DNA from: a plasmid
NCBI RefSeq assembly: GCF_054482525.1
Contig: NZ_JBTHVG010000003.1
Reading direction: 5' to 3' (one strand)
DNA: 64,000 nt
In this document: positions 1,913 through 18,962 of the stretch, in pieces
Position numbering within the stretch: position 1 is the first letter of the stretch
Layout of the letters: each line of letters begins with the position of its first letter
Made by a program: the position numbers and the translations under genes
The notes under the pieces: generated by a model
Told to the model about the DNA's origin: nothing
The model's database searches: none
The model's input: only the letters and a program-made list of their open reading frames with translations

Positions 1913-4900
1913 TTATTGTACGTTAAGGTTATTTTTTGACCTGCCTAATTTAGCTGGCCTCAGCCGACGAAACTTACCGGCTGACGGTATCCGGTTGCTT
2001 TTCCATATATAATCGCCTGTCAGATTGATGTGTTCCCAGCCTAGCGGGGACAAATGCGACAGTAGTTGCTCGTTGATCTTCACTCCCTTACGCTTCAGAG
2101 CATCGACAGCTCTTTCCATATAGACGGTATTCCACAGGGATATGGCAGCTGTCAGGAGCGTCAGTCCACTGGCGCGATAGCTCTGATTTTCCGGTTTTCG
2201 GTCCCTGATTTCTCCCAGCCGGTGCATAAATACCGCTCGCGCCAGCGCGTTACGGGCTTCACCTTTATTCAGCCCCGCCTGTACCCGCCGACGCAGTGCA
2301 GGATCGCGGAACCAGTCGAGCATAAACAGAGTTCGTTCAATACGGCCAATTTCTCTCAGTGCTTTGGCCAGCCCGTTTTGCTTGGGGTAGCTGGCAAGCT
2401 TTTTCAGCATCAGGGATGCCGTCACGGTTCCCTGCTTTATCGAGGTTGCCAGACGCAGCACTTCACGCCAGTGAATTTCGATCTCTTTCAGATTCAGGCT
2501 GGTTGTTGATATCAGTGACTGAAGCGCCGGGTACTGGCCTGCTTTCCCTTTGATAAATAGCTTCTTGTCGTGGAGATTCCTGATTCGCGGACAGAACGCA
2601 AATCCCAGCAGATGCATCAGGGCAAAGACATGATCGGTGAAACCCGCTGTATCGGTGTAATGCTCCCTGATTTCCAGGTCGCTTTCGTGGTACAGCAAGC
2701 CATCGAGCACATGGGTTGAATCTCTGACCCGACTGATTATGCAGGTGTAAAACGGGCTGTATTGATCCGAAATATGGGTATAAAACTGACGTCCGGGCTC
2801 CTGCCCGTATTTCGGGTTAACCTGCCCTGCGTAGCGGCCTGATCTGCCTGTTCTGAAATTCTGTCCATCTGATGATGATGTTGTCCCGTCTCCCCAGAAT
2901 GCCGCCAGCGGCCTTTTCCCCTGCGCGTTTACCAGCTCTGCAAGGGCTGCTGAATAGGTTTCGTCGCGGATGTACCATGCCTGAATATCTTCGAGTGATG
3001 ATTTGGTGCTACCGGGGCAGGCTTCCGCCATTTTGGTCAGGCCAAGATTGATGCCATCCGCAAGAATGGTGGTGAGAAGCAGGCGGATATCGGGACGGGT
3101 AATGTCAGTTTTTATATGCGAAAAATGTCGGGTAAACGTCGTCCAGCTGTTTACCTCATCGAGAATTTCCGTGATTTTAGGGCGCGGTAGCATGCTGTAA
3201 ACCAGCTCTGCCAGCGGTGAAACCTGCACCGGAACGCTGTTATCCAGCGGAGAGACTTTTACGCCCCTGTAAGATATTTCCACATCGGGCAGTTCACCAA
3301 GGGCAGCCATGGCATTGACCTCTTCAAGCCTGGACTGAAGCAGGGTCATACGGCTGGTAATGTACTCATGATAATCAGCAGATACGGGAAGTGGCAGCGC
3401 CGGTGTGAGTTTGTCAAAGTCCTTTTCGGGAATGAGGTAATCATCAAAATTTTTGTAGCGGCGTGAACCTTTGACCCAGATGTCCCCGGAACGCAACGCC
3501 CCCTTAAGCTCGCTGAGCGCACAAAATTCATAGTACTGCCGGTCAATACCCGCAGGTGTAATTACCACCTTGCGCCAACTTTCTGGGACAAACTCAAGCG
3601 GCGCGGTGGCCGGAACTTTACGTGACTGCTTCCGGTACATATCCTTGATCACAACCAGCGCATCAGCCAGAGGTTGCGCTGCCGGAGTTGCGATTAACTG
3701 TAAAGCTGACAACATGCGCGGGGCATATTTCCGTAATGTGCTGTATTTCTCGGTAATAATATGCAGCGGGTCAAAATTATTTTTTCTGGCGAGATGGCGT
3801 GTTTCCTCCAGACTGGCGACAAATTCAGGCCATGGGAGTATGTTTTCTATTGCGAGCCATGGATCTCCCCCGGAATCACGGGCATCAGACAGCGCCTGAC
3901 CGACATTGATGTACTGCCTCAGTTTTGACTGGATCAGCTTTCCGGTCTGCTGAAGGCGCTCAGCCTGTGTTCTTTTGGCTTTGCTGAAAAGGCTGTTCAG
4001 CATTCGCTCATGCAACTCAATCACTTCGTCTGTCAGTGTGGCTCTGGCTTCTTCCAGCACGCACACCAGGATCGCATGACGCCGGGCTGCTGAAAATCGG
4101 GTCAAATCCCGGCTGCTCATCTTTCGGCCTTCCCGCGCCAGTTTCAGCAACCGGTTCTGGTGAATGGTACGATCTATACCTTCCGGTAATGCCAGCGATT
4201 CAATGCTACTGAGCCGATCAAGGTGTTGCAGCACGTTCTTACCATTGATTTTACCCGGAGGTTGCAGAAGCCATGTCAGCCTGGAAGACTGATTATCCGA
4301 TGACTCAAGTAAACAATCCAGAGCATCCCTGTGAGCCGGAGTTAACGGGGCATTCAGGGTCTGAAACACGATTTTATCGCCGCCTGCCATGGCCTCAGCA
4401 CAGGAACGCTCCACGACATCAATCGAGGGGATTATCACGTTGTTCTGCCGGAGCCAGACCAGTAGTTCTTCGGCCAGGAGAATACCTTTATCGGTGCGCG
4501 TCGCCATCGGCAGCAGGTGTGTAATACAGTCCTGCTGTATTTTGCCGGTGAACGCTTTTAAGCCAAGATAGCGGTACAGTTCGGTTAAATGTTCGCGTCG
4601 CGTAGTTTCCCTGCCGGAAAGGTAAGCTGGCCAGAGATCCCCGGTAAGTTTTAGCCTGCTGGCGATATGCTTCAGCAGCGCATCAGAGGGAGGGATTTTT
4701 TTATCCGGGGTAAAGCCGACATTTTTCAGATAGCAAAGAAGGACGGCAAAACCAAAACGGCTGGCAGGTTTACGGTGGGCACTGATAAGTGCCAGATCAT
4801 GTTCACTGAAATACGCCATCCGGGTCAGCGTTAACTCTTCGTCCGGTAATGCCAGTAATGATTCTCTTTCCGACAGAGAAAGAATCTGCCTCCTTGCCAT
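1913..4900 (-). CDS. tnpA: Tn3-family transposase TnpA
   Basis: 995-aa ORF, typical Tn3-family transposase length and N-terminus; stop codon lies inside the terminal IR. Confidence 0.9.
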   Translation of the reverse strand: MARRQILSLSERESLLALPDEELTLTRMAYFSEHDLALISAHRKPASRFGFAVLLCYLKNVGFTPDKKIPPSDALLKHIASRLKLTGDLWPAYLSGRETTRREHLTELYRYLGLKAFTGKIQQDCITHLLPMATRTDKGILLAEELLVWLRQNNVIIPSIDVVERSCAEAMAGGDKIVFQTLNAPLTPAHRDALDCLLESSDNQSSRLTWLLQPPGKINGKNVLQHLDRLSSIESLALPEGIDRTIHQNRLLKLAREGRKMSSRDLTRFSAARRHAILVCVLEEARATLTDEVIELHERMLNSLFSKAKRTQAERLQQTGKLIQSKLRQYINVGQALSDARDSGGDPWLAIENILPWPEFVASLEETRHLARKNNFDPLHIITEKYSTLRKYAPRMLSALQLIATPAAQPLADALVVIKDMYRKQSRKVPATAPLEFVPESWRKVVITPAGIDRQYYEFCALSELKGALRSGDIWVKGSRRYKNFDDYLIPEKDFDKLTPALPLPVSADYHEYITSRMTLLQSRLEEVNAMAALGELPDVEISYRGVKVSPLDNSVPVQVSPLAELVYSMLPRPKITEILDEVNSWTTFTRHFSHIKTDITRPDIRLLLTTILADGINLGLTKMAEACPGSTKSSLEDIQAWYIRDETYSAALAELVNAQGKRPLAAFWGDGTTSSSDGQNFRTGRSGRYAGQVNPKYGQEPGRQFYTHISDQYSPFYTCIISRVRDSTHVLDGLLYHESDLEIREHYTDTAGFTDHVFALMHLLGFAFCPRIRNLHDKKLFIKGKAGQYPALQSLISTTSLNLKEIEIHWREVLRLATSIKQGTVTASLMLKKLASYPKQNGLAKALREIGRIERTLFMLDWFRDPALRRRVQAGLNKGEARNALARAVFMHRLGEIRDRKPENQSYRASGLTLLTAAISLWNTVYMERAVDALKRKGVKINEQLLSHLSPLGWEHINLTGDYIWKSNRIPSAGKFRRLRPAKLGRSKNNLNVQ

Positions 4901-5730: not shown

Positions 5731-6567
5731 TCATGCTGACAGCCTGAGCCTGTTGGCATGGTAAGCAATGTGCTCACCAATAAAGCTGGAAATGAAATAA
5801 TAGCTGTGGTCGTAACCAGTATGATATCGGAATGATGTGTTGATGTTCATCTCGTTGCACACTCTTTCAAGACTTTTAGTGCGTAACTGATCTTCATAAA
5901 AGGCGTCACTTAATCCCTGGTCAATAAAAATTTCTGGTAATTTCGCACCCTGTAAAATGAGACTGACGGGATCGTAGTGCTCCCACGTTTTTTTATTTTC
6001 ACCCAGGTACGCGGTGAATGCCTGTTGTCCCCATGGCACCTGAGAAGGTGACACTATTGGTGAAAATGCCGATACACTCACATATTCATCAGGATTTCGC
6101 AGCGACAGAACCAGCGCTCCCAGCCCCCCCATGGAGTGACCGGATATTGATTTCCTTGATGTTACAGGTAAATGCTCCATGACAACATCCGGAAGCTCAT
6201 GGAGAATATAGTCATACATCCTGTAATGCGTGTTCCACGGATGTTCCGTCGCGTTCAGATAAAATCCGGCACCCTGGCCCAGATCGTAGCTGTCAGCATC
6301 TGCGACATGCTCTCCACGGGGACTGGTATCAGGAACAACGACGATGATGTTGTTCCTGGCGGCATAATGCTGCATACCCGATTTGGTGATGAAATTCTGC
6401 TCCGTACAGGTCAGACCCGAGAGCCAGTACAGGACCGGCAGTTTTTCTGTTGCTGCTTTGGGGGGAAGATAAACACCGAAATTCATCTCACAATTAAGTG
6501 TTTGTGAATTATGGCGGTATACGTTTTGCCAGCCGCCAGCGCTGGCATGCTGCTCGATGAGTTCCAT
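5731..6567 (-). CDS. frmB: S-formylglutathione hydrolase (esterase D family)
   Basis: 278-aa ORF with esterase D/FrmB-like sequence including GHSMGG serine hydrolase motif. Confidence 0.85.
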   Translation of the reverse strand: MELIEQHASAGGWQNVYRHNSQTLNCEMNFGVYLPPKAATEKLPVLYWLSGLTCTEQNFITKSGMQHYAARNNIIVVVPDTSPRGEHVADADSYDLGQGAGFYLNATEHPWNTHYRMYDYILHELPDVVMEHLPVTSRKSISGHSMGGLGALVLSLRNPDEYVSVSAFSPIVSPSQVPWGQQAFTAYLGENKKTWEHYDPVSLILQGAKLPEIFIDQGLSDAFYEDQLRTKSLERVCNEMNINTSFRYHTGYDHSYYFISSFIGEHIAYHANRLRLSA

Positions 6568-6630
6568 TAGCCTCTCTCATGGTTATTTCCCCTGACAGGG
6601 AGTCAGGGGAAGTCTCTTTATAGCCGGACG

Positions 6631-7029
6631 TCAGATGAACGTATAAGCCGTGATTTTGTTACCCGCAGGGTCTCGCAGGTAGGCTGCATAGGCTCCAGGG
6701 AGATGGCTGCGCGGGCCAGGCTGACCTTCATCTTTCCCTCCGGCGGCAAGGCCCGCGGCGTGGAAAGCATCAACTTCTTCCGGACTTGCAGCTGCAAAGC
6801 CGACAGTAACGCCGTTGGCCGATGGCGCTTCACCGTTGCCCGGACGTGCAATAATAAAGGCTGGCTTTTCACGACCATAAAGTACCCAGCCATTGCCAAA
6901 CGGGCCGAGGTTATTGATGCCAAGCGTACCGAGGACAGCATCGTAAAAATCAGCGGATTTTTCAACATCGGATGCACCGATGAAGACGTGGGAAAAAACG
7001 TCATTACCAGAAATTACAGGTGTTGCCAT
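6631..7029 (-). CDS. VOC/glyoxalase-family protein
   Basis: 132-aa ORF with glyoxalase-like fold signature; sits between frmB and frmA. Confidence 0.65.
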   Translation of the reverse strand: MATPVISGNDVFSHVFIGASDVEKSADFYDAVLGTLGINNLGPFGNGWVLYGREKPAFIIARPGNGEAPSANGVTVGFAAASPEEVDAFHAAGLAAGGKDEGQPGPRSHLPGAYAAYLRDPAGNKITAYTFI

Positions 7030-7070
7030 GATCCATTTCCTTCAGTTGGTTTGACTCAGTTAAGACGCTA

Positions 7071-8210
<1,140 letters not shown>

Positions 8211-8486
8211 CTATTTAAGATAGGCGCGAACCAGTTCAATCGTATCGTCAACGGATTTACTGATTTCATGGCTGTAGCTGTCATTCTGGTCAAAGGTTTC
8301 CCGTATGTGGCTCTCGAGCACCTCTGCCATAAGACCGTTAGCTGCTCCGCGAACGGCAGCTATCTGCTGAAGAATGGAACGGCATTCAGCACCATTTTCC
8401 AGCGCTCTTTCCAGAGCATCAATCTGACCCCGAATACGGCGAACACGGGTAAGGACCTTTTTTTTCTCTTCAGGAGTACTGGGCAT
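8211..8486 (-). CDS. frmR: formaldehyde-responsive repressor FrmR (CsoR/RcnR family)
   Basis: 91-aa ORF with CsoR/RcnR-like helical sequence, first gene of the frm operon. Confidence 0.85.
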
Positions 8487-8867: not shown

Positions 8868-9248
8868 TTACAAATCAGCCCCTTTCACGGCATCATTTTG
8901 ATTCTTCGCGTCTGCCCCCAGTAAGATGACCGGTTTTCTGCATGACAGTGTTATTCCTAACAAACGCAACACAAAACCACGCCAGCCAGAGCAAATTTTT
9001 TCATTTGCTGCGTAAAGCCTATTGTTTTCTCTTTTAAGCTTCGCCCACTCGTTACAGAGGGTAACATCATCAAGCGCTGTTATATGCTTCGCCTCACCTT
9101 CGACGATAACGGTATGGATACCGTATGCTGTAAATCTCATACTATTTTCCAGAACCCAGTTGCGGTATTCGTCGAGTCCACCTTCGGAACCGGTAGCTCT
9201 GCGCCACATTTCAATTTGCTTGTGTGATGGGTCAAGTGTACTTGTCAT
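8868..9248 (-). CDS. hypothetical protein
   Basis: 126-aa ORF immediately right of the transposon insertion; no family recognised. Confidence 0.45.
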   Translation of the reverse strand: MTSTLDPSHKQIEMWRRATGSEGGLDEYRNWVLENSMRFTAYGIHTVIVEGEAKHITALDDVTLCNEWAKLKRENNRLYAANEKICSGWRGFVLRLLGITLSCRKPVILLGADAKNQNDAVKGADL

Positions 9249-9507
9249 TGAAGCCTCGTCTCAGCGATAACGCTTGAAATAGCCCGCTTTGGTCATCATG
9301 AAATTAGCCATCTGACTGGCGATTTGATTGTATCTTACTCATAGTGCCCTACCTATAGGTTAAAAAGGGGCATTTTCGCTTTATAGCGTGTTCAGCAGCA
9401 TCAATCCTCCCAAGAAAGGCTGGCTTATTAAGCCGGTCCATCATTTTCTGTATATCTCTCATCAATTTTTATATCCGCCCTGGAGTGCACCGTTCAAGCA
9501 CACCGAT

Positions 9508-9536
9508 TAGGCAGATAGTCACTAGTTAACTCTTTA
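9508..9536. promoter_or_regulatory. perfect 10-bp-arm inverted repeat (candidate operator)
   Basis: AGTCACTAGT-N9-ACTAGTGACT in the AT-rich region upstream of the 9879 operon. Confidence 0.35.
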
Positions 9537-9784
9537 CTAGTGACTAAATTCCATTGATATACGTGACAACGTCACGTCATGAAAGCTTATAAATGCCTAT
9601 TTTTCATACAATGGGATTTAATTAGGAGTAAATCCCATAGGCTTACATAAGGATGACAATTAAAAGCGTTAAATATCAACCAGATAGAATGATTACCCCC
9701 AATTAATGGGCTCATCACATTATTTCACTGGCTGGGGTTATTGCTGGCATATCTGAAAGTGCTAATATGTTAGTCATTAGTAAT

Positions 9785-9803
9785 TAGTAAAGCCTTTACT
9801 AAA
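9785..9803. promoter_or_regulatory. perfect palindrome TTAGTAAAG-C-CTTTACTAA (candidate operator)
   Basis: 19-bp palindrome about 75 bp upstream of the 9879 start codon. Confidence 0.35.
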
Positions 9804-9878
9804 CGCGTTTCTACGTAAATTCTATAGGTTTTATAGTGTCCTACCTTTGCTCAAATCAAAATGTTCTGACATACCAAA

Positions 9879-10709
9879 ATGGAGTGTAAAATGACTCAAA
9901 ACCAGGGTTCTGAGCCAGTACCGGCGAGCCGGACAGGGCAGCTCATCAGCGCCCGGGATATGGCCATGCAGAAATTCGAAGAAGGGATGCGGTTAATCTC
10001 GGAAGCGTCGGAACTGTGCGGTCTCTCTCTCTTCACCAGCAGAATTATGCAGCCCAACGCATTTGGTCTTCCGTCGTCACTGGATCGCACCATCGAGGAG
10101 GGGCGTAAGGAAATTGACCGTAAAACGTGGAAAAGGCTCTTTGAAGAAACAGGTATGGACCGGTACTGGAACCATAAGCAAAAAGAAGCCTTTAACGAAT
10201 CCCTTCGTACGGATCCGCCCGTCGCTTCCCTGGAGATTGTTAAGGGAACATTACAGCATGCACTGGCTAACAGACGAGACACCCTTGCAGAAGGTTTCGT
10301 TGATGTTCTCAACAAGCTTGACCGAAGTTTCAAAAGCAATGCCAGGCAATATACAATGCCAAAAAAGCTTGTTCTTCGGGGGATTTTTCCTGGTGTGAAC
10401 GTGCTGAGGTACAACGGTTTCTCGCAGGACAATCACTTTTGTTTACGCGACTTTGAGAATATTGTATGCATCTGTTCTGATACTCCAACACCTGCAACCG
10501 GCGGTGGGCTGAGTATGGTCGACAGGCTGACGGCCATGAGAAATACAGAATTCACAGGCGAGGTCAGTGATGAGAATGGCTGGCGGTGTCGCCTGTTTGA
10601 GAATGGAAACGTTCATATTTGCATCGACAGTATCTCGCTTCTGAATGCTCTGAACGATCTTATCAGCATATATTTTGCAAACCAGCTTCCGGCCGCAGGA
10701 AAAAAATGA
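9879..10709 (+). CDS. hypothetical protein (plasmid backbone)
   Basis: 276-aa ORF; its stop overlaps the downstream start by 4 nt (ATGA), implying translational coupling. Confidence 0.5.
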   Translation: MECKMTQNQGSEPVPASRTGQLISARDMAMQKFEEGMRLISEASELCGLSLFTSRIMQPNAFGLPSSLDRTIEEGRKEIDRKTWKRLFEETGMDRYWNHKQKEAFNESLRTDPPVASLEIVKGTLQHALANRRDTLAEGFVDVLNKLDRSFKSNARQYTMPKKLVLRGIFPGVNVLRYNGFSQDNHFCLRDFENIVCICSDTPTPATGGGLSMVDRLTAMRNTEFTGEVSDENGWRCRLFENGNVHICIDSISLLNALNDLISIYFANQLPAAGKK

Positions 10710-11911
10710 TGATTGAAAATGATAAAGAAAAAAGCCTGAACGATGCTACCCCGCCAGAGGTGCAGAATGACATCCGCAGCGAATCCACTGAAAAATCAAA
10801 GGAAATGGGTCGTTCAAGGTACTCATCTATCGCGATGATCGATTACTTCAATGCAATCGAACGTCTGTGCAAAGAGAAAGAAATTAACCCGGAAAATATC
10901 GATCTGAGCTTCAAAGTTCACTGGCTCAGAAACGCTGTTGGCGGCTCGTTTGCAAGGTCACAGGAGATGTTCGCGGAGTACCAGAAGTATGTTAAAGAGG
11001 TTCCTGAAGAGGCCCGTTACCTGGATATACCCGATGAGGTAAAGGTTGCACTCGGCGATATTATCTCGTACATCACCTGGCACTACCGTAGAAGCTATAC
11101 CGCAATACAGAATGATAGTGTTAAAAAAGCTGAAGCACGTAGCATGCAGCTGGAGGAGGAGGTAACGCAGCTGTTACAGCGGCTTGAGCAAAGCGCTACC
11201 GATATGGATGAGCTGAAACTTGAGAATCAGGCACTACAGGGTCGATTAGAGATCCGGGACAGTACCGTCAAGGAGTTAGAAACAAGGCTGAATGTTGCCG
11301 AAGCAGAACTCGAAACCTGCCATCACCAGTTAGATAGCACACGGCATGAATTGAGCCTCGCACAGCAGTCAAATGACTCACTCTCCCAGCAACTGGCTGA
11401 ACGTAAAACAGAGATCGCTGGTCACCTTGAATATCAAAAAAAGCTGAACGAAGAGATCAACACGCAGCGTTCTGATAACGCCGGTCTTTCCAGACAATGC
11501 GACCAGTTAAGTCAGACTGTGTCAGATACAAAGGCAGAGAGGGACAGGTTTGAACAGGAATTGATTGCTGCACAGAACCTTTGTACTGAGCTGAAAAGTG
11601 CACTGTCCGGGAAAGAGGGTGACCTGGTGGCGGTGAATGCCGAGCTTACTGAACTCCATAAACTAAACGAGTCGCTGAGCGCCGACCTGAATAAAGTAAC
11701 TTTGGTCAGCCAGGGCTATGAAGCGGAAGTGGCTGAACAAAGCAATGAACTCAAAACGCTCCAGGCCAAAGTAATGAAGCTGGAAGCTACCCTGGAGGCG
11801 GAGAAAACAATCTCAGAATCCCTAAAAGGCACCATTGATACATTAACTGGTGCAATGGCAGGGGGAGGTACTGGAAAGTCAAAACAGCCGCGTAGCAGAA
11901 AAACATCATGA
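10706..11911 (+). CDS. kfrA: KfrA-like coiled-coil DNA-binding protein
   Basis: Start moved from the track to ATG at 10706; N-terminal KfrA-like domain followed by a long heptad-rich acidic coiled-coil and basic tail. Confidence 0.6.
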   Translation: MMIENDKEKSLNDATPPEVQNDIRSESTEKSKEMGRSRYSSIAMIDYFNAIERLCKEKEINPENIDLSFKVHWLRNAVGGSFARSQEMFAEYQKYVKEVPEEARYLDIPDEVKVALGDIISYITWHYRRSYTAIQNDSVKKAEARSMQLEEEVTQLLQRLEQSATDMDELKLENQALQGRLEIRDSTVKELETRLNVAEAELETCHHQLDSTRHELSLAQQSNDSLSQQLAERKTEIAGHLEYQKKLNEEINTQRSDNAGLSRQCDQLSQTVSDTKAERDRFEQELIAAQNLCTELKSALSGKEGDLVAVNAELTELHKLNESLSADLNKVTLVSQGYEAEVAEQSNELKTLQAKVMKLEATLEAEKTISESLKGTIDTLTGAMAGGGTGKSKQPRSRKTS

Positions 11912-11974
11912 TAAATGAAGCCAGGTTGATACACTTCTCTGCATCCCCTGGCACATAAGAACTTCTGCGGACAT

Positions 11975-12178
11975 TCAGCCCGTCCGCAGGAGTTTTCGTC
12001 CTTCAGTCAACAAATGCACTACCTTTTTTGAGTCTCCACTTTCCAGAGCAGAAAACACGTTACCGATTCTACCAACAGCTTGTATCTGAGTGATAACCCC
12101 AGTCTTGTAATCATCTAGGATCCCTGACAGGAAAGCGTTCAGTTTTGTCTGTTCGCTTAGCGAAAGCATGTAGGACAT
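11975..12178 (-). CDS. hypothetical protein
   Basis: 67-aa ORF, last gene of the minus-strand methyltransferase operon. Confidence 0.35.
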   Translation of the reverse strand: MSYMLSLSEQTKLNAFLSGILDDYKTGVITQIQAVGRIGNVFSALESGDSKKVVHLLTEGRKLLRTG

Positions 12179-12190
12179 TTTTTCTCCATT

Positions 12191-13510
12191 TTAAGCAGGT
12201 GTGTCAGTTGAAAGAGGTTTGCGTGATTCTGGAAAATGAGGCAGCACCATAGTTTCAGATGCTGTGGTCGCATCCCAGTGCCACCATCCATAAGGCCCAT
12301 ATTCACGGTTGTAATAATCTTTTTTGAGTTGCTTTCGGGCCAGATAAGCAGGAGTGGCCATACCAAATACTTCCATCGGGAACGGCTTATCGCTTTTTGT
12401 GTCGAGCAGGTAGAAGTCAGGGAACACCTCACTAATACTCGCATCATAACGCATGGGCTTAACGTACTGCCGGTGCTCTGCATCCAGCTTTTCTGCAACA
12501 ACCGCCTCATAGGAGGAGTCCAGAGGTATCCAGTTCTCGCTAACGTGCATCAGCACAATTTGATGAGCTCTTACAGAAGGGCCTCTGCCGGTTACCGCAG
12601 CTGGTGACGTCAACGCAAAGACAACTATTTTCGCCCCGGATTTCCATGCTGCGTACTCCGATGAAAATCGTTTCTTTACGCTATCCCAATGGACTTCTGA
12701 ATTGAAAAAAATCAGCGGTAGCCCCCCAAAATTCCGCAGGGGTAAAAATTTAAGTGGCTTCTCATGCTTTTCAGCATCGTAGCGAGGTAAAACTGACAGG
12801 AGCATGAGACGTTTATCACTCATCGCCTGTGATGAAAGACGCTGAATTTGCGACTGAGCGACAGGTTGTTTCGGGTCAGGTACACCAATGAATAAATGGT
12901 CACCTATGCAGGCTCTGCCGGTACGAATTTGTTTAGCGGTTTCAAGCAGACGATACCGTACCAGTGAATCGTTACGTTTCCCTGCCATTTTCGGGTACCA
13001 GACATTCAGACCAGACTCTGTCCACAAAAGACTAAGCAAGCCCAGGAGGGTCATTGAGGCCTGACCTCCTTCTGGTCGCTGAACATGGGGCAGGGGAGGC
13101 ACTTCTGATTTTTCAGGAGGATCTTTCTCTGTCATACCGATACCGAGCCTTACAGCCATATCACCTTCGGTTGTAATCCGGACCACACCACTCGCATATC
13201 CTTTCAGGCCGGTATGCCGGGCATCAAGGGAGAAGAATACACAGGAAGGATCATGCTCAATGCCCGTGTTAGCGGCTTTGACGAGAATAAAGGCATCACC
13301 GTTCGGTAAAGCACGAACATAAAGTCGCTTTTCTCCTTTTCCACGACATCCGCAGGTGATGACTGATTTTTGACCTGAGGTGTGGTGTGCCTTTTTAAGA
13401 GCCGACTGCCACCCTTTAGCAAACTCATCCTGCGTTTGAAAGTCAGGTGAATACCTTTTGACGTTTGGATCGTCGTCGTAAGCAATCATCACTGCGAATT
13501 TTTGGCTCAT
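12191..13510 (-). CDS. hypothetical protein, 439 aa (methyltransferase-linked)
   Basis: Large ORF co-directional with and downstream of the cytosine methyltransferase; no catalytic motif confidently recognised. Confidence 0.55.
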   Translation of the reverse strand: MSQKFAVMIAYDDDPNVKRYSPDFQTQDEFAKGWQSALKKAHHTSGQKSVITCGCRGKGEKRLYVRALPNGDAFILVKAANTGIEHDPSCVFFSLDARHTGLKGYASGVVRITTEGDMAVRLGIGMTEKDPPEKSEVPPLPHVQRPEGGQASMTLLGLLSLLWTESGLNVWYPKMAGKRNDSLVRYRLLETAKQIRTGRACIGDHLFIGVPDPKQPVAQSQIQRLSSQAMSDKRLMLLSVLPRYDAEKHEKPLKFLPLRNFGGLPLIFFNSEVHWDSVKKRFSSEYAAWKSGAKIVVFALTSPAAVTGRGPSVRAHQIVLMHVSENWIPLDSSYEAVVAEKLDAEHRQYVKPMRYDASISEVFPDFYLLDTKSDKPFPMEVFGMATPAYLARKQLKKDYYNREYGPYGWWHWDATTASETMVLPHFPESRKPLSTDTPA

Positions 13511-13532
13511 AGTAGTCTCCTAAACAGGAAGT

Positions 13533-13700
13533 TTAATATCCCAACCAGAGCAACACTTCCTGAGCGTCATACTGTTCCTTTACGCCCATGTCGCTAAAGA
13601 ATTCTTCGAAATCTGTTTCGGGAACGCAATGCCTGGACAGTTCTTGTAATGCTCGTTCTTTAGATACCGTCTCACCTTCAGCTGATTCGAAATACGTCAT
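13533..13700 (-). CDS. small hypothetical protein (55 aa)
   Basis: ORF below the track's size cut-off, translated by hand as MTYFESAEGETVSKERALQELSRH...; sits between the methyltransferase and the 439-aa gene. Confidence 0.3.
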   Translation of the reverse strand: MTYFESAEGETVSKERALQELSRHCVPETDFEEFFSDMGVKEQYDAQEVLLWLGY

Positions 13701-13760
13701 GGTTGACCTCTGACATTATTACAACAATCTTAAGCATTTAAATTGATGAAGGAGCTCAGG

Positions 13761-15230
13761 TCAGCTGACTTCGTCGTAAAACTGCCGCAAGCGCTGGGAG
13801 GCTGCAAATTCAATTCGTGACTTCAGCAGTTTGGCGACGGCCGCAAAGACATCAACGACCACGGAGTTCCCAAACTGTCTGTAAGCCTGTGTATTGGACA
13901 CAGGGATACGGAAAACACTTTCCCCGGGTTTATCGAAGCCCATTAGCCTGCTGCATTCACGTGGCGTTAGCATGCGTGGCCGACGGTCCATGTTGTATGT
14001 GTTATGGAAATCAGTTTCTCCCAGTTCATGAGACCAGCCCCGATCAATAAGAATTTCAGATCCGTCTTTCATATAGCGGCTTGAGAGGGTTCTGGTGACA
14101 CTATTAACATTGGAAGGATCTACTAGTCCAAAACCAAAACCATTGCCTTTTGCCGCATGTTTCTTTGCATAGTTGTATAAGTACTCCCAGAGTTTAGGGG
14201 AGAGGATGTATTTACTATCTACGCTCGGATCCAGTAAATCTGAGAGAGAAGGGCGCTTGTCCGGATAAAAGTCTTTAATGTCTCTCAGAGTAAAACCGTC
14301 TTTCAGACGTAGGTCGCGGCGAAAACCAATAAGGACGATACGTTCACGGTGCTGGGGTCGGAAATGACGGCCATCGATGACTTTAGGATCATCCGCGCCC
14401 GTGCTTTCGCTGTTTGCGACGTCGTAGCCAAGCTCATCGAGCGTTTTCATGATGATGTTAAAGGTATTACCCTTATCGTGACTCTTCAGATTTTTTACGT
14501 TTTCCAGAACAAAAATTGCAGGTTGTTTTGCCCGGATGATCCTGGCCACATCAAAGAAGAGCGTACCCTGAGTGTCGCACTCGAAACCGTGTTTGCGACC
14601 CATAGAGTTCTTTTTACTGACACCGGCGATGCTGAATGGCTGGCATGGAAATCCCGCAAGAAGAACATCATGATCCGGGATAGAGGCATCGATAAATTTG
14701 TATGCCTCGTCATCAGTAACCTCGGGCCGGTTGCTAAGAGTGATGTCACGGATGTCTGAATTGAAGCGGTGCTCGTTCTCATCGCAATACCAGTTCGCCC
14801 GGTAAGTACGGCTGGAATAAGTATTCCATTCGCTCGTGAAAAGACATTTACCACCGATGGCATCAAATCCGCTTCGCAGTCCACCTATCCCTGCAAACAG
14901 ATCGATAAAGCTAAAGTGCCTGTCCTCATAATCAGCAGGTCGTGAAGGTATTAAAGTCTGTAGATAGCGTCCATCTGCGATACTCAGCTCACAATGCTCA
15001 GGTATGCATGTAACCTGACGTTTAAGGGATGCACGGGACCAATTACTGCCATTTTCATCATTTAATACCTGAGCCAGATATTTCAGGTCATAAATGGTCG
15101 AAGCTGTTAACAAAGTTTTGTGGATCAGAGATGGTGTTTTATCCACATCATTCAGGTCTGTCTCAAGATCATGAGTGTAACGTTTCATCCAAACTCTCTC
15201 AGGAATAATATCTTTGAGATAGATTAACAC
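13761..15230 (-). CDS. DNA cytosine-5 methyltransferase, Dcm/M.EcoRII-like
   Basis: Motif I FAGIGG, motif IV PCQPFS, motif [12 protein letters not shown]; N-terminal extension as in Dcm; true start may be an internal Met. Confidence 0.85.
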
Positions 15231-16864: not shown

Positions 16865-17272
16865 ATGAATGAAAACTCAGTAATCTTAATAAGTTTATTT
16901 TGGTTTTTTTTGGGATCGAGTGTTGTAGCTGGTTTTATGGATGCATCATTATATTGCTGGATTTTTGCAGCCATAAGCGCATTGTTTCTTCTTTCGGTGA
17001 TACAAACACCAAAGGAGTTAACGGTATCTATTAGTCATATGACAAGCAAAACGCTGATCTCAAAGACAGATGATGGATACACATTTAGCATTTCACCTTA
17101 CGGAGACGGGTACCGCTTATCAGTCTCGCCTGAAAATCGTCACAATGGTACCCAAAGCTTTGACGGCTGGTTCCCACGTTTTTTTTCCGAACCACAGTAT
17201 GCCAAATCATCTTTAACTAAATTTCTCGGTGAGTCCTTAGTATGGGAAGAAGATTCAAGTAATGCTCTATGA
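16865..17272 (+). CDS. small membrane protein
   Basis: 135-aa ORF with two N-terminal hydrophobic helices. Confidence 0.4.
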   Translation: MNENSVILISLFWFFLGSSVVAGFMDASLYCWIFAAISALFLLSVIQTPKELTVSISHMTSKTLISKTDDGYTFSISPYGDGYRLSVSPENRHNGTQSFDGWFPRFFSEPQYAKSSLTKFLGESLVWEEDSSNAL

Positions 17273-17317
17273 GATTACTTATTATAAATTTTTCTATTAA
17301 TCTCCATGGAGTGATAT

Positions 17318-17572
17318 ATGAATTTGGCCTATTTTTTATTTTTGTCTATAACTGTTATGCTTACGAGCTTTATTATTAAATCACTTGTCGTATTGGTAAA
17401 GTTCAAATTACTTCGTGATGAACGTCTCGAATATACCAGCAATAAAAATATTGATGAGATGTACGATTTAATGAATGCGAAGGAAGAAATCCTCATAAGG
17501 CATCATAAGCAGATGTTGGCATTGCATCTTTCACTATTAATATTCGTTCTATTTATTGCTTACATTTACTAA
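17318..17572 (+). CDS. small membrane protein
   Basis: 84-aa ORF with hydrophobic helices at both ends. Confidence 0.4.
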   Translation: MNLAYFLFLSITVMLTSFIIKSLVVLVKFKLLRDERLEYTSNKNIDEMYDLMNAKEEILIRHHKQMLALHLSLLIFVLFIAYIY

Positions 17573-17609
17573 AAATAATTTTATTCAACATTTCAACAAA
17601 GGGTTTTCA

Positions 17610-17897
17610 ATGGAAAGCTTCGAAACTGAACAAATGATTCAATATGCTTTCTACATAAATATCGTAATAACGACTGGTTTGGCATGGTTTTGCTTGCGGT
17701 CAGGATTGCATTACAATTTTTTCAGAAAAGCAGAGAGTGCCAGAACAAAAGGGCTGAGTAGTACCTCTACTGAACACGGTCCAGCAATAGTGAGACTAAA
17801 GAAGCTACAAGCATTAGTAGATTTTATTAGTAACTGTGCTTTTCTAATCCTTTCAATTGGCACAGCTTATATTTTGTATGTTTGGAGCCACAGTTAA
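17610..17897 (+). CDS. small membrane protein
   Basis: Start moved to internal ATG at 17610 after an AAAGGG ribosome-binding site; two hydrophobic helices. Confidence 0.35.
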   Translation: MESFETEQMIQYAFYINIVITTGLAWFCLRSGLHYNFFRKAESARTKGLSSTSTEHGPAIVRLKKLQALVDFISNCAFLILSIGTAYILYVWSHS

Positions 17898-17966
17898 CTC
17901 ATACGAGGTAACTTCGGCAGGTAACAACTTCTAATGCAGGACTTTAATAACTCTAAGGGATTCTAC

Positions 17967-18164
17967 ATGAAAAAAGACGATCTAATTACGCGTTGTAAAT
18001 TACTTAAAGGCGAACGCGATGAGTCTATCTTTACCATATTAATTGGGATAGTAGTAAAGCTGGGGCTGGTAGGCCTGGCATTCTATCTGTTGCTTGGTTC
18101 CACGATTGATTGGTCAAGCTGGAAAACTTATGCCGCCATGTTGATCTTGGGAGCATTTCTCTAA
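17967..18164 (+). CDS. small membrane protein
   Basis: Start moved to internal ATG at 17967 after an AAGGGA ribosome-binding site; hydrophobic C-terminal half. Confidence 0.35.
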   Translation: MKKDDLITRCKLLKGERDESIFTILIGIVVKLGLVGLAFYLLLGSTIDWSSWKTYAAMLILGAFL

Positions 18165-18500
18165 AATCTTGAACCTTTTTTCACTCATTACAAGCCATGA
18201 CCTAGTGCGTAGATCATACGATCTTTAAACCTTATGTCATTGATTTATAAGTACATATAACAAAGATTATGTTAAATACTGTATGTATGTACAGCATCAA
18301 CAGTTGCCCCCCTCATATTGAGGTAATTGCTACATTCATACCACTATTCTTCTTATAGTATCGACATCCTGAATTATTGCACCCTACTGCTTTGTCTTTA
18401 GCTGTTCCGAATTAAAATTCATTGCTCAATTTGGATCACATGACGATCAGCGTATTCCTTTGCTTTATCAAAGTTAAGTTTTTAAAACATAAGATATGTA

Positions 18501-18962
18501 ATGACAAATTCTCAATCTGATTTTCCTTTGAACGATCAAAATTTTCAGGCAGATTTGCTGAAAATCAAAAAGGTTTTCGCCGACCTTATAACGCAGGCAT
18601 CAGATGGTAAGATACCCATAAGGTCTTCTCATGTACACGGCTTACACCATTTCGAGGAGCTCTACATCCGGGCAAGAGCAGGCATGTGTTCGGTCCTGGG
18701 ATATCCGGTCATGGTTGTTTCAACTATCTCAGTTAAAGAGCCCGGCACAGGCATTTTTAGAGCGCTTCTTGCAGAATTGAAATGTATTGCAGATGAACAA
18801 AATTACATTTTGAAAATTGAAAATGTACTGCCTCCCCTATTCCGCAAATACCTTATTCAAGAAGGTTTTGTTTTCCCAGGTGAACCTTGGATGTGTGGTT
18901 CCGGCTATTGGTTTAAGAACCCACAAGTACTTCATGAAAATATTGAGTTATTATCTGTTTAA
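18501..18962 (+). CDS. hypothetical protein
   Basis: 153-aa ORF; no family recognised. Confidence 0.45.
   Translation: MTNSQSDFPLNDQNFQADLLKIKKVFADLITQASDGKIPIRSSHVHGLHHFEELYIRARAGMCSVLGYPVMVVSTISVKEPGTGIFRALLAELKCIADEQNYILKIENVLPPLFRKYLIQEGFVFPGEPWMCGSGYWFKNPQVLHENIELLSV

Follow-up and report, generated by a model that had tools for sequence, protein, structure and literature searches.

Plasmid proteins of the KfrA type are autorepressors in which an N-terminal DNA-binding head is joined to a coiled-coil tail (PMC7783346, PMC7821693). In plasmid RA3, the KfrA operator is composed of three direct 9-nt repeats, the -10 element and two inverted copies, with a motif found nowhere else in the plasmid and with repression of over 200-fold (PMC7783346); in R751, KfrA acts at an inverted repeat that spans the -10 element (PMC7821693). 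Here, we describe a two-gene operon preceded by four palindromes at positions 9249-11911 of a 64,000-nt window, the term used below for the whole stretch of plasmid DNA analysed (contig NZ_JBTHVG010000003.1, assembly GCF_054482525.1), which represents an IncHI2 plasmid backbone. The operon encodes a DUF4942 protein and a 401-aa head-plus-coiled-coil protein; it has never been studied, and its products have so far been annotated only as 'DUF4942' and as 'hypothetical' or 'coiled-coil'. Comparison of sequences across diverged loci strongly supports the palindromes as the conserved control region of this operon, which probably represses itself. The parts of the operon and its control region are as follows.

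9249..9890, no strand: intergenic control region, 642 nt, AT-rich, with conservation islands in a five-locus alignment
9516..9546, no strand: palindrome A, distal operator candidate, heptads TAGTCAC TAGTTAA, ctc, TTTACTA GTGACTA
9563..9575, no strand: palindrome B, GTGAC-N3-GTCAC (GTGAC-AAC-GTCAC in the window), with an extended form ACGTGACAACGTCACGT at 9561-9577
9611..9638, no strand: palindrome C, ATGGGATTTA-N8-TAAATCCCAT
9741..9768, plus strand: putative promoter read from the sequence, -35 element TTGCTG at 9741-9746, 16-nt spacer, extended -10 element TGCTAATAT at 9760-9768
9771..9802, no strand: palindrome and heptad array D, proximal operator candidate, TAGTCAT TAGTAAT TAGTAAA, gcc, TTTACTA
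9891..10709, plus strand: DUF4942 gene, 272 aa, GGAG at 9882-9885, start set by RefSeq (WP_000193209.1) and homologue alignment
10706..11911, plus strand: 401-aa head-plus-coiled-coil gene, its start overlapping the upstream stop (ATGA, 10706-10709), AGGA at 10697-10700

The spacer contains 38% G+C, compared with 48% for the window, in agreement with the first-pass annotation of this DNA, which had described an AT-rich region upstream of a 276-aa/KfrA-like pair and, within it, two perfect palindromes sharing an ACTAG/TAGT core. The second of these, placed there at 9785-9803, was recovered one base away as a perfect 9+1+9 palindrome (TTAGTAAAG-C-CTTTACTAA, 9784-9802) inside array D. The first, given as 9508-9536, exists as palindrome A but lies ~8-10 nt from that position and is not one perfect palindrome, being built of perfect 11-nt arms (TAGTCACTAGT / ACTAGTGACTA) around a 9-nt centre or, read alternatively, of 14-nt arms with one mismatch around a 3-nt centre. 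Both sites are arrays of direct and inverted 7-bp TAGTNAN units, with two direct heptads, 3 nt and two inverted heptads in A, and three direct heptads, 3 nt and a single inverted one in D. The shared core was borne out, since TAGT-N9-ACTA and TAGT-N3-TAGT are common to the two sites and all their matches in the 64-kb window fall here (two against 0.37 expected and four against 0.75 expected, respectively). Palindromes B and C, located between the TAGT sites, had been missed by the first-pass annotation; as a candidate CRP site, B was ruled out by eye on account of its wrong spacing. When arms are required to span 9 nt or more and loops 10 nt or fewer, the spacer contains three perfect inverted repeats, a number reached in only 0.2% of dinucleotide-preserving shuffles (n=2000), at least two such repeats being found in 1.0%. 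Together with their conservation, these shuffles rule out chance as the origin of the palindromes. The exact motifs of all four elements have no second copy in the 274,762 bp of R478, the IncHI2 reference plasmid, and a plasmid-wide regulon is thereby ruled out.

To evaluate conservation, the neighbourhood was compared in 12 further loci whose coiled-coil proteins are 24-81% identical to that of the window, namely L003 (Photorhabdus), L004 (Enterobacter), L005, L006, L008, L015, L016, L017, L025 (IncHI1-type), L026/L027 (IncHI1B), L028 and L029. Loci with the elements span IncHI2, IncHI1, Photorhabdus, Enterobacter and metagenome sequences. Palindromes A, B, C and D recur in the same order upstream of diverged operon copies (11 loci aligned or read), with B ~47 nt after A, C ~48 nt after B and D ~150-185 nt after C, with constant arms and drifting centres and flanks. 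Palindrome A is kept in L005, L006, L015, L025 and L027, with only its right half in L003; palindrome B has exact arms and a variable centre in all 11 loci in which upstream DNA was read; and palindrome C shows invariant arms and a variable centre in most loci, with mirrored substitutions on both arms in L017 (ATGCGATATAA / TTATATCGCAT). Nine further loci retain the D core, TAGTAA-N5/6-TTACTA, which begins 3-25 nt past the -10 element; in L017, site D is diverged and located before that element. The distances from A to D (262, 262, 264, 270 and 286 bp) are not consistently in helical phase, so DNA looping between the two sites stays speculation.

The elements remain with the operon when the leftward neighbour changes, that neighbour being a group II intron in L003 and a DUF6884 gene in L015 and L025, with no 126-aa gene in L004. 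The L003 intron, with its reverse transcriptase/maturase genes, lies immediately left of the control region with the half-site of palindrome A mentioned above (L003 2147-4512 and ~4700-4790). In the window, the left boundary is formed by a divergent gene for a hypothetical protein.

8868..9248, minus strand: 126-aa hypothetical gene, from the ORF list and RefSeq (WP_001426317.1)

Its product matched no Pfam or NCBIfam model, and in L004, L015 and L025, where the palindromes are still present, the equivalent position has no called gene of such a length. Control of this leftward gene as their main role is ruled out by that persistence. The proposal of the first-pass annotation that the spacer is the control region for the pair was thus upheld, in that the palindromes travel with the operon across diverged loci and the second one lies just past an invariant extended -10 element.

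The first gene had been read as a 276-aa frame starting at 9879. That frame exists, but the likelier start is the ATG at 9891, giving 272 aa, as indicated by RefSeq, by homologues and by the GGAG at 9882-9885. The product, previously called uncharacterised, gave in a profile search a match to Pfam PF13708 (DUF4942; E=2.8e-26, 92.8 bits against a gathering cut-off of 25, residues 77-265), a domain without known function. In all 11 loci with a readable upstream position, the DUF4942 gene stands directly upstream of the coiled-coil gene. The ATGA overlap noticed earlier is present at 10706-10709, and the junction is a 4-nt overlap in the window, L004, L005 and L008 and a gap of 1-20 nt in L003, L015, L016, L017, L026, L028 and L029. 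This arrangement, seen in every locus, supports tight translational coupling of the pair at the level of sequence, as had been suggested. Two loci depart from the usual gene content. In the metagenome-derived L006, frameshifts break the DUF4942 frame (1231-1950), which reflects a pseudogene or else a fault of assembly; the coiled-coil gene and the full set of four palindromes are intact in this locus. In L028, the most diverged locus, palindrome D and the DUF4942 gene are separated by a 100-aa ORF (2855-3157), which may be a third gene of the operon in that locus.

DUF4942 is mentioned in four papers, none of which deals with its function. Its predicted structure is poor (pLDDT 63.5), no structural neighbour of the model was found, and the protein has no recognised DNA-binding motif. 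What is firm about DUF4942 is its obligate pairing with this coiled-coil family and its occurrence elsewhere in longer proteins, fused to an N6-adenine DNA methyltransferase module. R478 carries such a second DUF4942 protein of 562 aa (WP_000096325.1), whose methyltransferase module has an NPPF motif; immediately ahead of it lies a gene whose 387-aa product is ParB-like by eye (minus strand, 16919-18610 and 18858-20021 of L014, that is, of R478 250,001-274,762). DUF4942 therefore stands beside a probable DNA-binding partner a second time in R478.

In the 401-aa protein, the conserved head, which is helical, covers residues ~38-145 and is followed by a divergent coiled coil (~135-385, ~250 aa) and a basic tail, as delimited by the family alignment. 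Two head motifs, VHWLR..VGGSF.R.QEM and VPEEAR, are invariant in the family, the tail region is divergent and heptad-rich, and matches over residues ~135-385 are of generic coiled-coil and SMC type. The family is very small, with nine clusters in a word-seeded search and 15 relatives when 1.84 billion representative proteins were searched exhaustively with a profile of the head; the full-length relatives have ~384-415 aa and the same architecture, and no KfrA is among the 15. KfrA_N was likewise not among the matches listed for 13 family members at E<=10. A pre-planned profile-profile test set the head against a diverse KfrA_N alignment, for which sequences were taken from R751, from six further plasmids and from seven database proteins. 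The test yielded a weak match in hhalign (score 25.65, P=9e-4) over 87-89 collinear columns that include the GGSF turn, compared with 9.9 and 11.1 for reversed controls, a mean of 15.1 and a maximum of 19.6 for 200 block shuffles, and 9-19 for unrelated helical alignments. This match is suggestive, as judged from sequence profiles, of very distant kinship or of convergence on the same head design.

Accordingly, the designation 'KfrA-like' stands in part. The architecture (helical head, coiled coil of ~250 aa, basic tail, plasmid-borne) agrees with it, but sequence models do not file the protein under KfrA; the label holds for the probable working of the protein, with family membership unproven. 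The genomic setting differs as well. The first-pass annotation had taken absence of the 276-aa partner from other kfrA loci as a point that would count against its proposal. A DUF4942 neighbour is indeed absent from seven canonical kfrA loci (R751, pAsa5, an Enterobacter IncF plasmid, Paenibacillus, Vibrio, pYK0414-12 and Thioflavicoccus plasmids), but is present in all readable loci of the coiled-coil family itself. The window pair is not linked to partition genes or to kfrB/kfrC-type partners, the neighbours of its coiled-coil gene being DUF4942, DUF1173, cytosine methyltransferase, thermonuclease and H-NS genes; in R478, ParA/ParB lie at 15-18 kb and the pair at 147-149 kb. No relevant link of KfrA to IncHI2 was found in the literature. 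Membership in a defence system was rejected, PADLOC having returned coiled-coil noise only.

Just ahead of D, the five-locus alignment shows no variation in the pattern TGnTAnnnT (T271 G272 T274 A275 T279), which is found also in L015, L025, L027, L028 and L029, and in the window array D begins 3 nt past this element. From its conserved position, combined with TTGCTG, we infer an extended -10 promoter. Direct and inverted short repeats that are unique in the plasmid and abut a -10 element, as in KfrA operators, favour autorepression. Under this mechanism, 9249-9890 would be the promoter-operator region of a bicistronic operon of the IncHI backbone, and the head of the coiled-coil protein would bind the TAGTNAN arrays as a dimer or higher oligomer. 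The proximal array at 9771-9802 would cover the transcription start, and binding at the arrays would shut off the operon of the binder itself, as RA3 KfrA does. The distal array, 262 bp upstream, may add cooperativity, and palindromes B and C could be sites for further factors. We regard this specific scheme, with the coiled-coil protein acting at D and A serving as an auxiliary site, as roughly an even call.

Several observations weigh against it. Pfam KfrA_N remained unmatched at E<=10 by the window protein and by the isolated head, the head matches no sequence model of KfrA_N or of any other DNA-binding domain, and the hhalign probability is only 12-23%. A consensus promoter scan called nothing in the spacer, the putative promoter having 8/12 hexamer matches. 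Three palindrome types imply more than one binding protein, and B and C certainly need an explanation other than the TAGT binder. Finally, a 32-kb transposon splits the operon from the sites in R478 and in ~50 E. coli IncHI2 records, in which the genes are intact; the control region is thus dispensable for keeping the genes.

Other readings have to be weighed. The sequence-specific binder of the TAGT arrays could instead be the DUF4942 protein, alone or with the coiled-coil protein, the latter serving as a scaffold or filament. DUF4942 is the first gene and is always co-encoded, its domain is fused elsewhere to a methyltransferase module that acts on DNA, and the head of its partner contains no recognised DNA-binding domain. 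The DUF4942 protein is, however, equally devoid of a recognised DNA-binding motif, with a poor model and no structural match, L006 retains the palindromes and the coiled-coil gene with a frameshifted DUF4942 gene (though this may be an assembly error), and for autorepression there is a direct precedent in proteins of head-plus-coiled-coil build; we consider a DUF4942 binder unlikely. A second reading does away with self-control and has the palindromes bound by regulators encoded elsewhere, on the plasmid or by the host, with H-NS-type silencing of the spacer. It would accommodate the three distinct palindrome types, the invariance of palindrome B even where the TAGT sites have diverged, the AT-rich spacer and the plasmid H-NS gene present a few kb away in every locus with leftward flank available. 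Set against this, no motif recurs elsewhere in R478, as a plasmid-wide regulon would require, and the TAGT arrays change together with the operon proteins in the most diverged locus, which makes outside control rather improbable. The conserved hairpins could also act as nucleic-acid structures (a leader RNA, a terminator of the leftward gene or a single-strand promoter) instead of duplex protein sites. Folding of single-stranded DNA does beat shuffles (z = -4.9 for the plus strand and -3.5 for the minus strand), and the mirrored changes on both arms of palindrome C in L017 also speak for this reading. However, any palindrome folds well, so these scores are not independent evidence. Across the loci, the arms are invariant and not covarying (an unfavourable covariation term of +2.08, with double changes in 2/37 pairs), the centres vary while the arms stay fixed, as expected of dimer-binding sites, the terminator scan made no call at the palindromes and found no T-run after the hairpins, and the spacer contained no Rfam family match above threshold and no tRNA match. 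Invariant arms without covariation, the lack of a terminator call and the lack of an Rfam family favour protein sites on duplex DNA and rule out RNA or single-strand structure, a reading that we consider barely credible.

A further reading concerns the right-hand part of the spacer, which coincides with an insertion point that is empty in the window.

9837..9841, no strand: empty insertion point of the sil/pco Tn7-like transposon, occupied in R478 with 5 bp duplicated

In R478, the four palindromes lie at 114,407-114,693 and the operon at 147,196-149,216, separated by a 32.4-kb Tn7-like element with sil and pco that is inserted at the equivalent of this point (junctions 114,733 and 147,143, 5-bp duplication GGTCC, TGT...ACA ends, tnsA end toward D). 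The same element occupies the homologous point of the IncHI1B plasmid NZ_CP114565.1 (L027 ~2770, L026 ~2575), where the flanks have diverged, the duplication is GGTGG and the distance from palindrome D is 39 bp, compared with 40 bp in R478. The two insertions share orientation and have identical end sequences at both junctions; the coiled-coil proteins of the two backbones are 42.6% identical. Repeated insertion at one point and in one orientation, with 5 bp duplicated each time, is what is expected of a Tn7-type site, and the two insertions look like independent and site-specific events. In addition, a diverged Tn7-like end abuts or lies upstream of the DUF4942 gene in L016, and ~50 of the ~290 E. 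coli records are split at exactly the insertion base. The region of palindrome D might thus be conserved, or used, mainly as an attachment site of the sil/pco transposon, which would be compatible with an operator role. The recurrence of one transposon at a homologous point of IncHI2 and IncHI1B plasmids at nearly the same offset, with differing duplications, the same orientation and the tnsA end facing D, agrees with this reading, as do the L016 end and the split records. The palindromes are nevertheless conserved in many loci that lack the transposon, so it cannot explain their conservation. Furthermore, the chromosomal site of the element is reported to be yhiN/yhiM (PMC8417528), to which the plasmid insertion site showed no similarity by blastn. 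We regard use mainly as an attachment site as a doubtful account of the region. IncH plasmids are not mentioned in a survey of Tn7 target selectors. It is similarly tentative that D and the ~40 bp to its right double as a dedicated plasmid landing site, at which a transposon-encoded selector would read the palindrome, or a plasmid protein bound to it, and direct insertion at a fixed offset of 39-40 bp.

Autorepression by the coiled-coil protein remains the favoured account of the arrays, and the features around the operon can be described beside it. A direct repeat, ATAGTGyCCTACCT, is present near both spacer ends, at 9341-9354 and 9833-9846, and is adjoined by CTATAGGTT at 9353-9361 and 9822-9830, the order being permuted between the ends. 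Its right-hand copy overlaps the transposon insertion point; in L005, the left copy is kept and the right copy only partly. On the far side, a hairpin is the likely end of the operon.

11965..11989, no strand: G+C-rich hairpin between convergent genes, terminator-like on the minus strand in the scan; on the plus strand it is followed by GAGTTTTCG

Right of the operon, at 11975-15230, lies a convergent block that encodes a DUF1173 protein of 426-439 aa, a 55-59-aa ORF and an orphan cytosine methyltransferase. This block is kept wherever the right flank is available and is usually preceded by a 67-71-aa ORF, with a thermonuclease gene following where enough DNA is available. An H-NS gene and usually the thermonuclease gene are found nearby in loci with further flanking DNA. 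On the left, the three genes next to the 126-aa gene (5731-8486) are formaldehyde-detoxification-like by sequence and encode a 278-aa esterase, a 369-aa class III alcohol dehydrogenase and a 91-aa FrmR-type repressor. In other IncHI2 plasmids, a 221-aa backbone gene directly follows the 126-aa gene, and because these two genes adjoin there, the formaldehyde-type genes are taken as an accessory insertion. A 995-aa ORF is located further left, at 1913-4900.

Large IncHI2 plasmids from E. coli, Salmonella, Enterobacter and others contain the segment 9249-11911 at 100% identity, with matches in 291 E. coli records and in 1,177 PLSDB plasmids, mostly conjugative. By tblastn, the coiled-coil gene is carried by 1,431 PLSDB plasmids, which divide into ~1,150 IncHI2-type plasmids with at least 95% identity and 282 plasmids at ~43%, IncHI1-type plasmids being among the latter. 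R478 has the same DUF4942/coiled-coil pair. RefSeq labels the first product (WP_000193209.1) 'DUF4942 domain-containing protein' and the second (WP_001572381.1) 'hypothetical' or 'coiled-coil domain-containing protein'. Multidrug, colistin and metal resistance are carried to a major extent by plasmids of the IncHI2 and IncHI1 groups. If autorepression is true, the range of KfrA-type head-plus-coiled-coil autoregulators would extend to IncHI plasmids, by way of a head family that escapes current models, and DUF4942 would for the first time be placed in a functional setting, with a DNA-binding coiled-coil protein as its obligate partner. If the landing-site proposal holds, transposon insertion would cut the operon from its promoter while carrying metal resistance onto IncHI plasmids at a defined site. 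The arrays provide a short and precise set of sites for binding and reporter work, and the reproducible sil/pco insertion point can serve in plasmid typing and perhaps in working out the choice of plasmid targets by Tn7-like elements. The interest of the locus is raised somewhat by the clinical importance of IncHI plasmids, by the context that DUF4942 receives for the first time and by the transposon landing site.

Several described systems can be set beside this locus. DUF4942-methyltransferases, represented by WP_000096325.1 of R478 and by phage 'putative methylases', share the Pfam domain with the first gene product (E=2.3e-22 for the R478 protein, compared with 2.8e-26 for the window protein); the window protein consists of the domain alone, whereas the 562-aa form adds the methyltransferase module (NPPF motif, MTS/N6_Mtase matches). 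The insertion point resembles attTn7 and its TnsD-directed use (PMC2918618) in the 5-bp duplication, the TGT...ACA ends, the fixed orientation and the tnsA-proximal end facing a conserved sequence at a fixed offset; it differs in that the flanking sequence is a non-coding plasmid palindrome, whereas that of attTn7 is the end of a conserved chromosomal gene.

The KfrA proteins of the IncP-1 plasmids RK2 and R751 (PF11740) share with the window protein a head followed by a coiled coil and the weak collinear profile match that includes the GGSF turn, and an inverted repeat overlaps the promoter in both systems, as an autoregulatory operator in R751 and as a candidate in the window. These proteins have no HMMER-level homology to the window protein, and in R751 kfrA stands beside korB/incC and is followed by kfrB and kfrC, with no DUF4942 neighbour. 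In RA3 KfrA (IncU), the repeats measure 9 bp, compared with 7 bp (TAGTNAN) in the window, and the partner is KfrC, in contrast to an upstream and overlapping DUF4942 gene here; moreover, the window head is missed by KfrA_N models, its pair has no incC/korB linkage, and three further palindromes lie upstream. Nevertheless, RA3 KfrA and the window protein are both plasmid-borne, with a helical head and a long coiled coil, each is co-encoded with a second operon protein, and in both cases direct and inverted short repeats, of a motif unique in the plasmid, are placed at a -10 element, where binding is known for RA3 and predicted for the IncHI operon.

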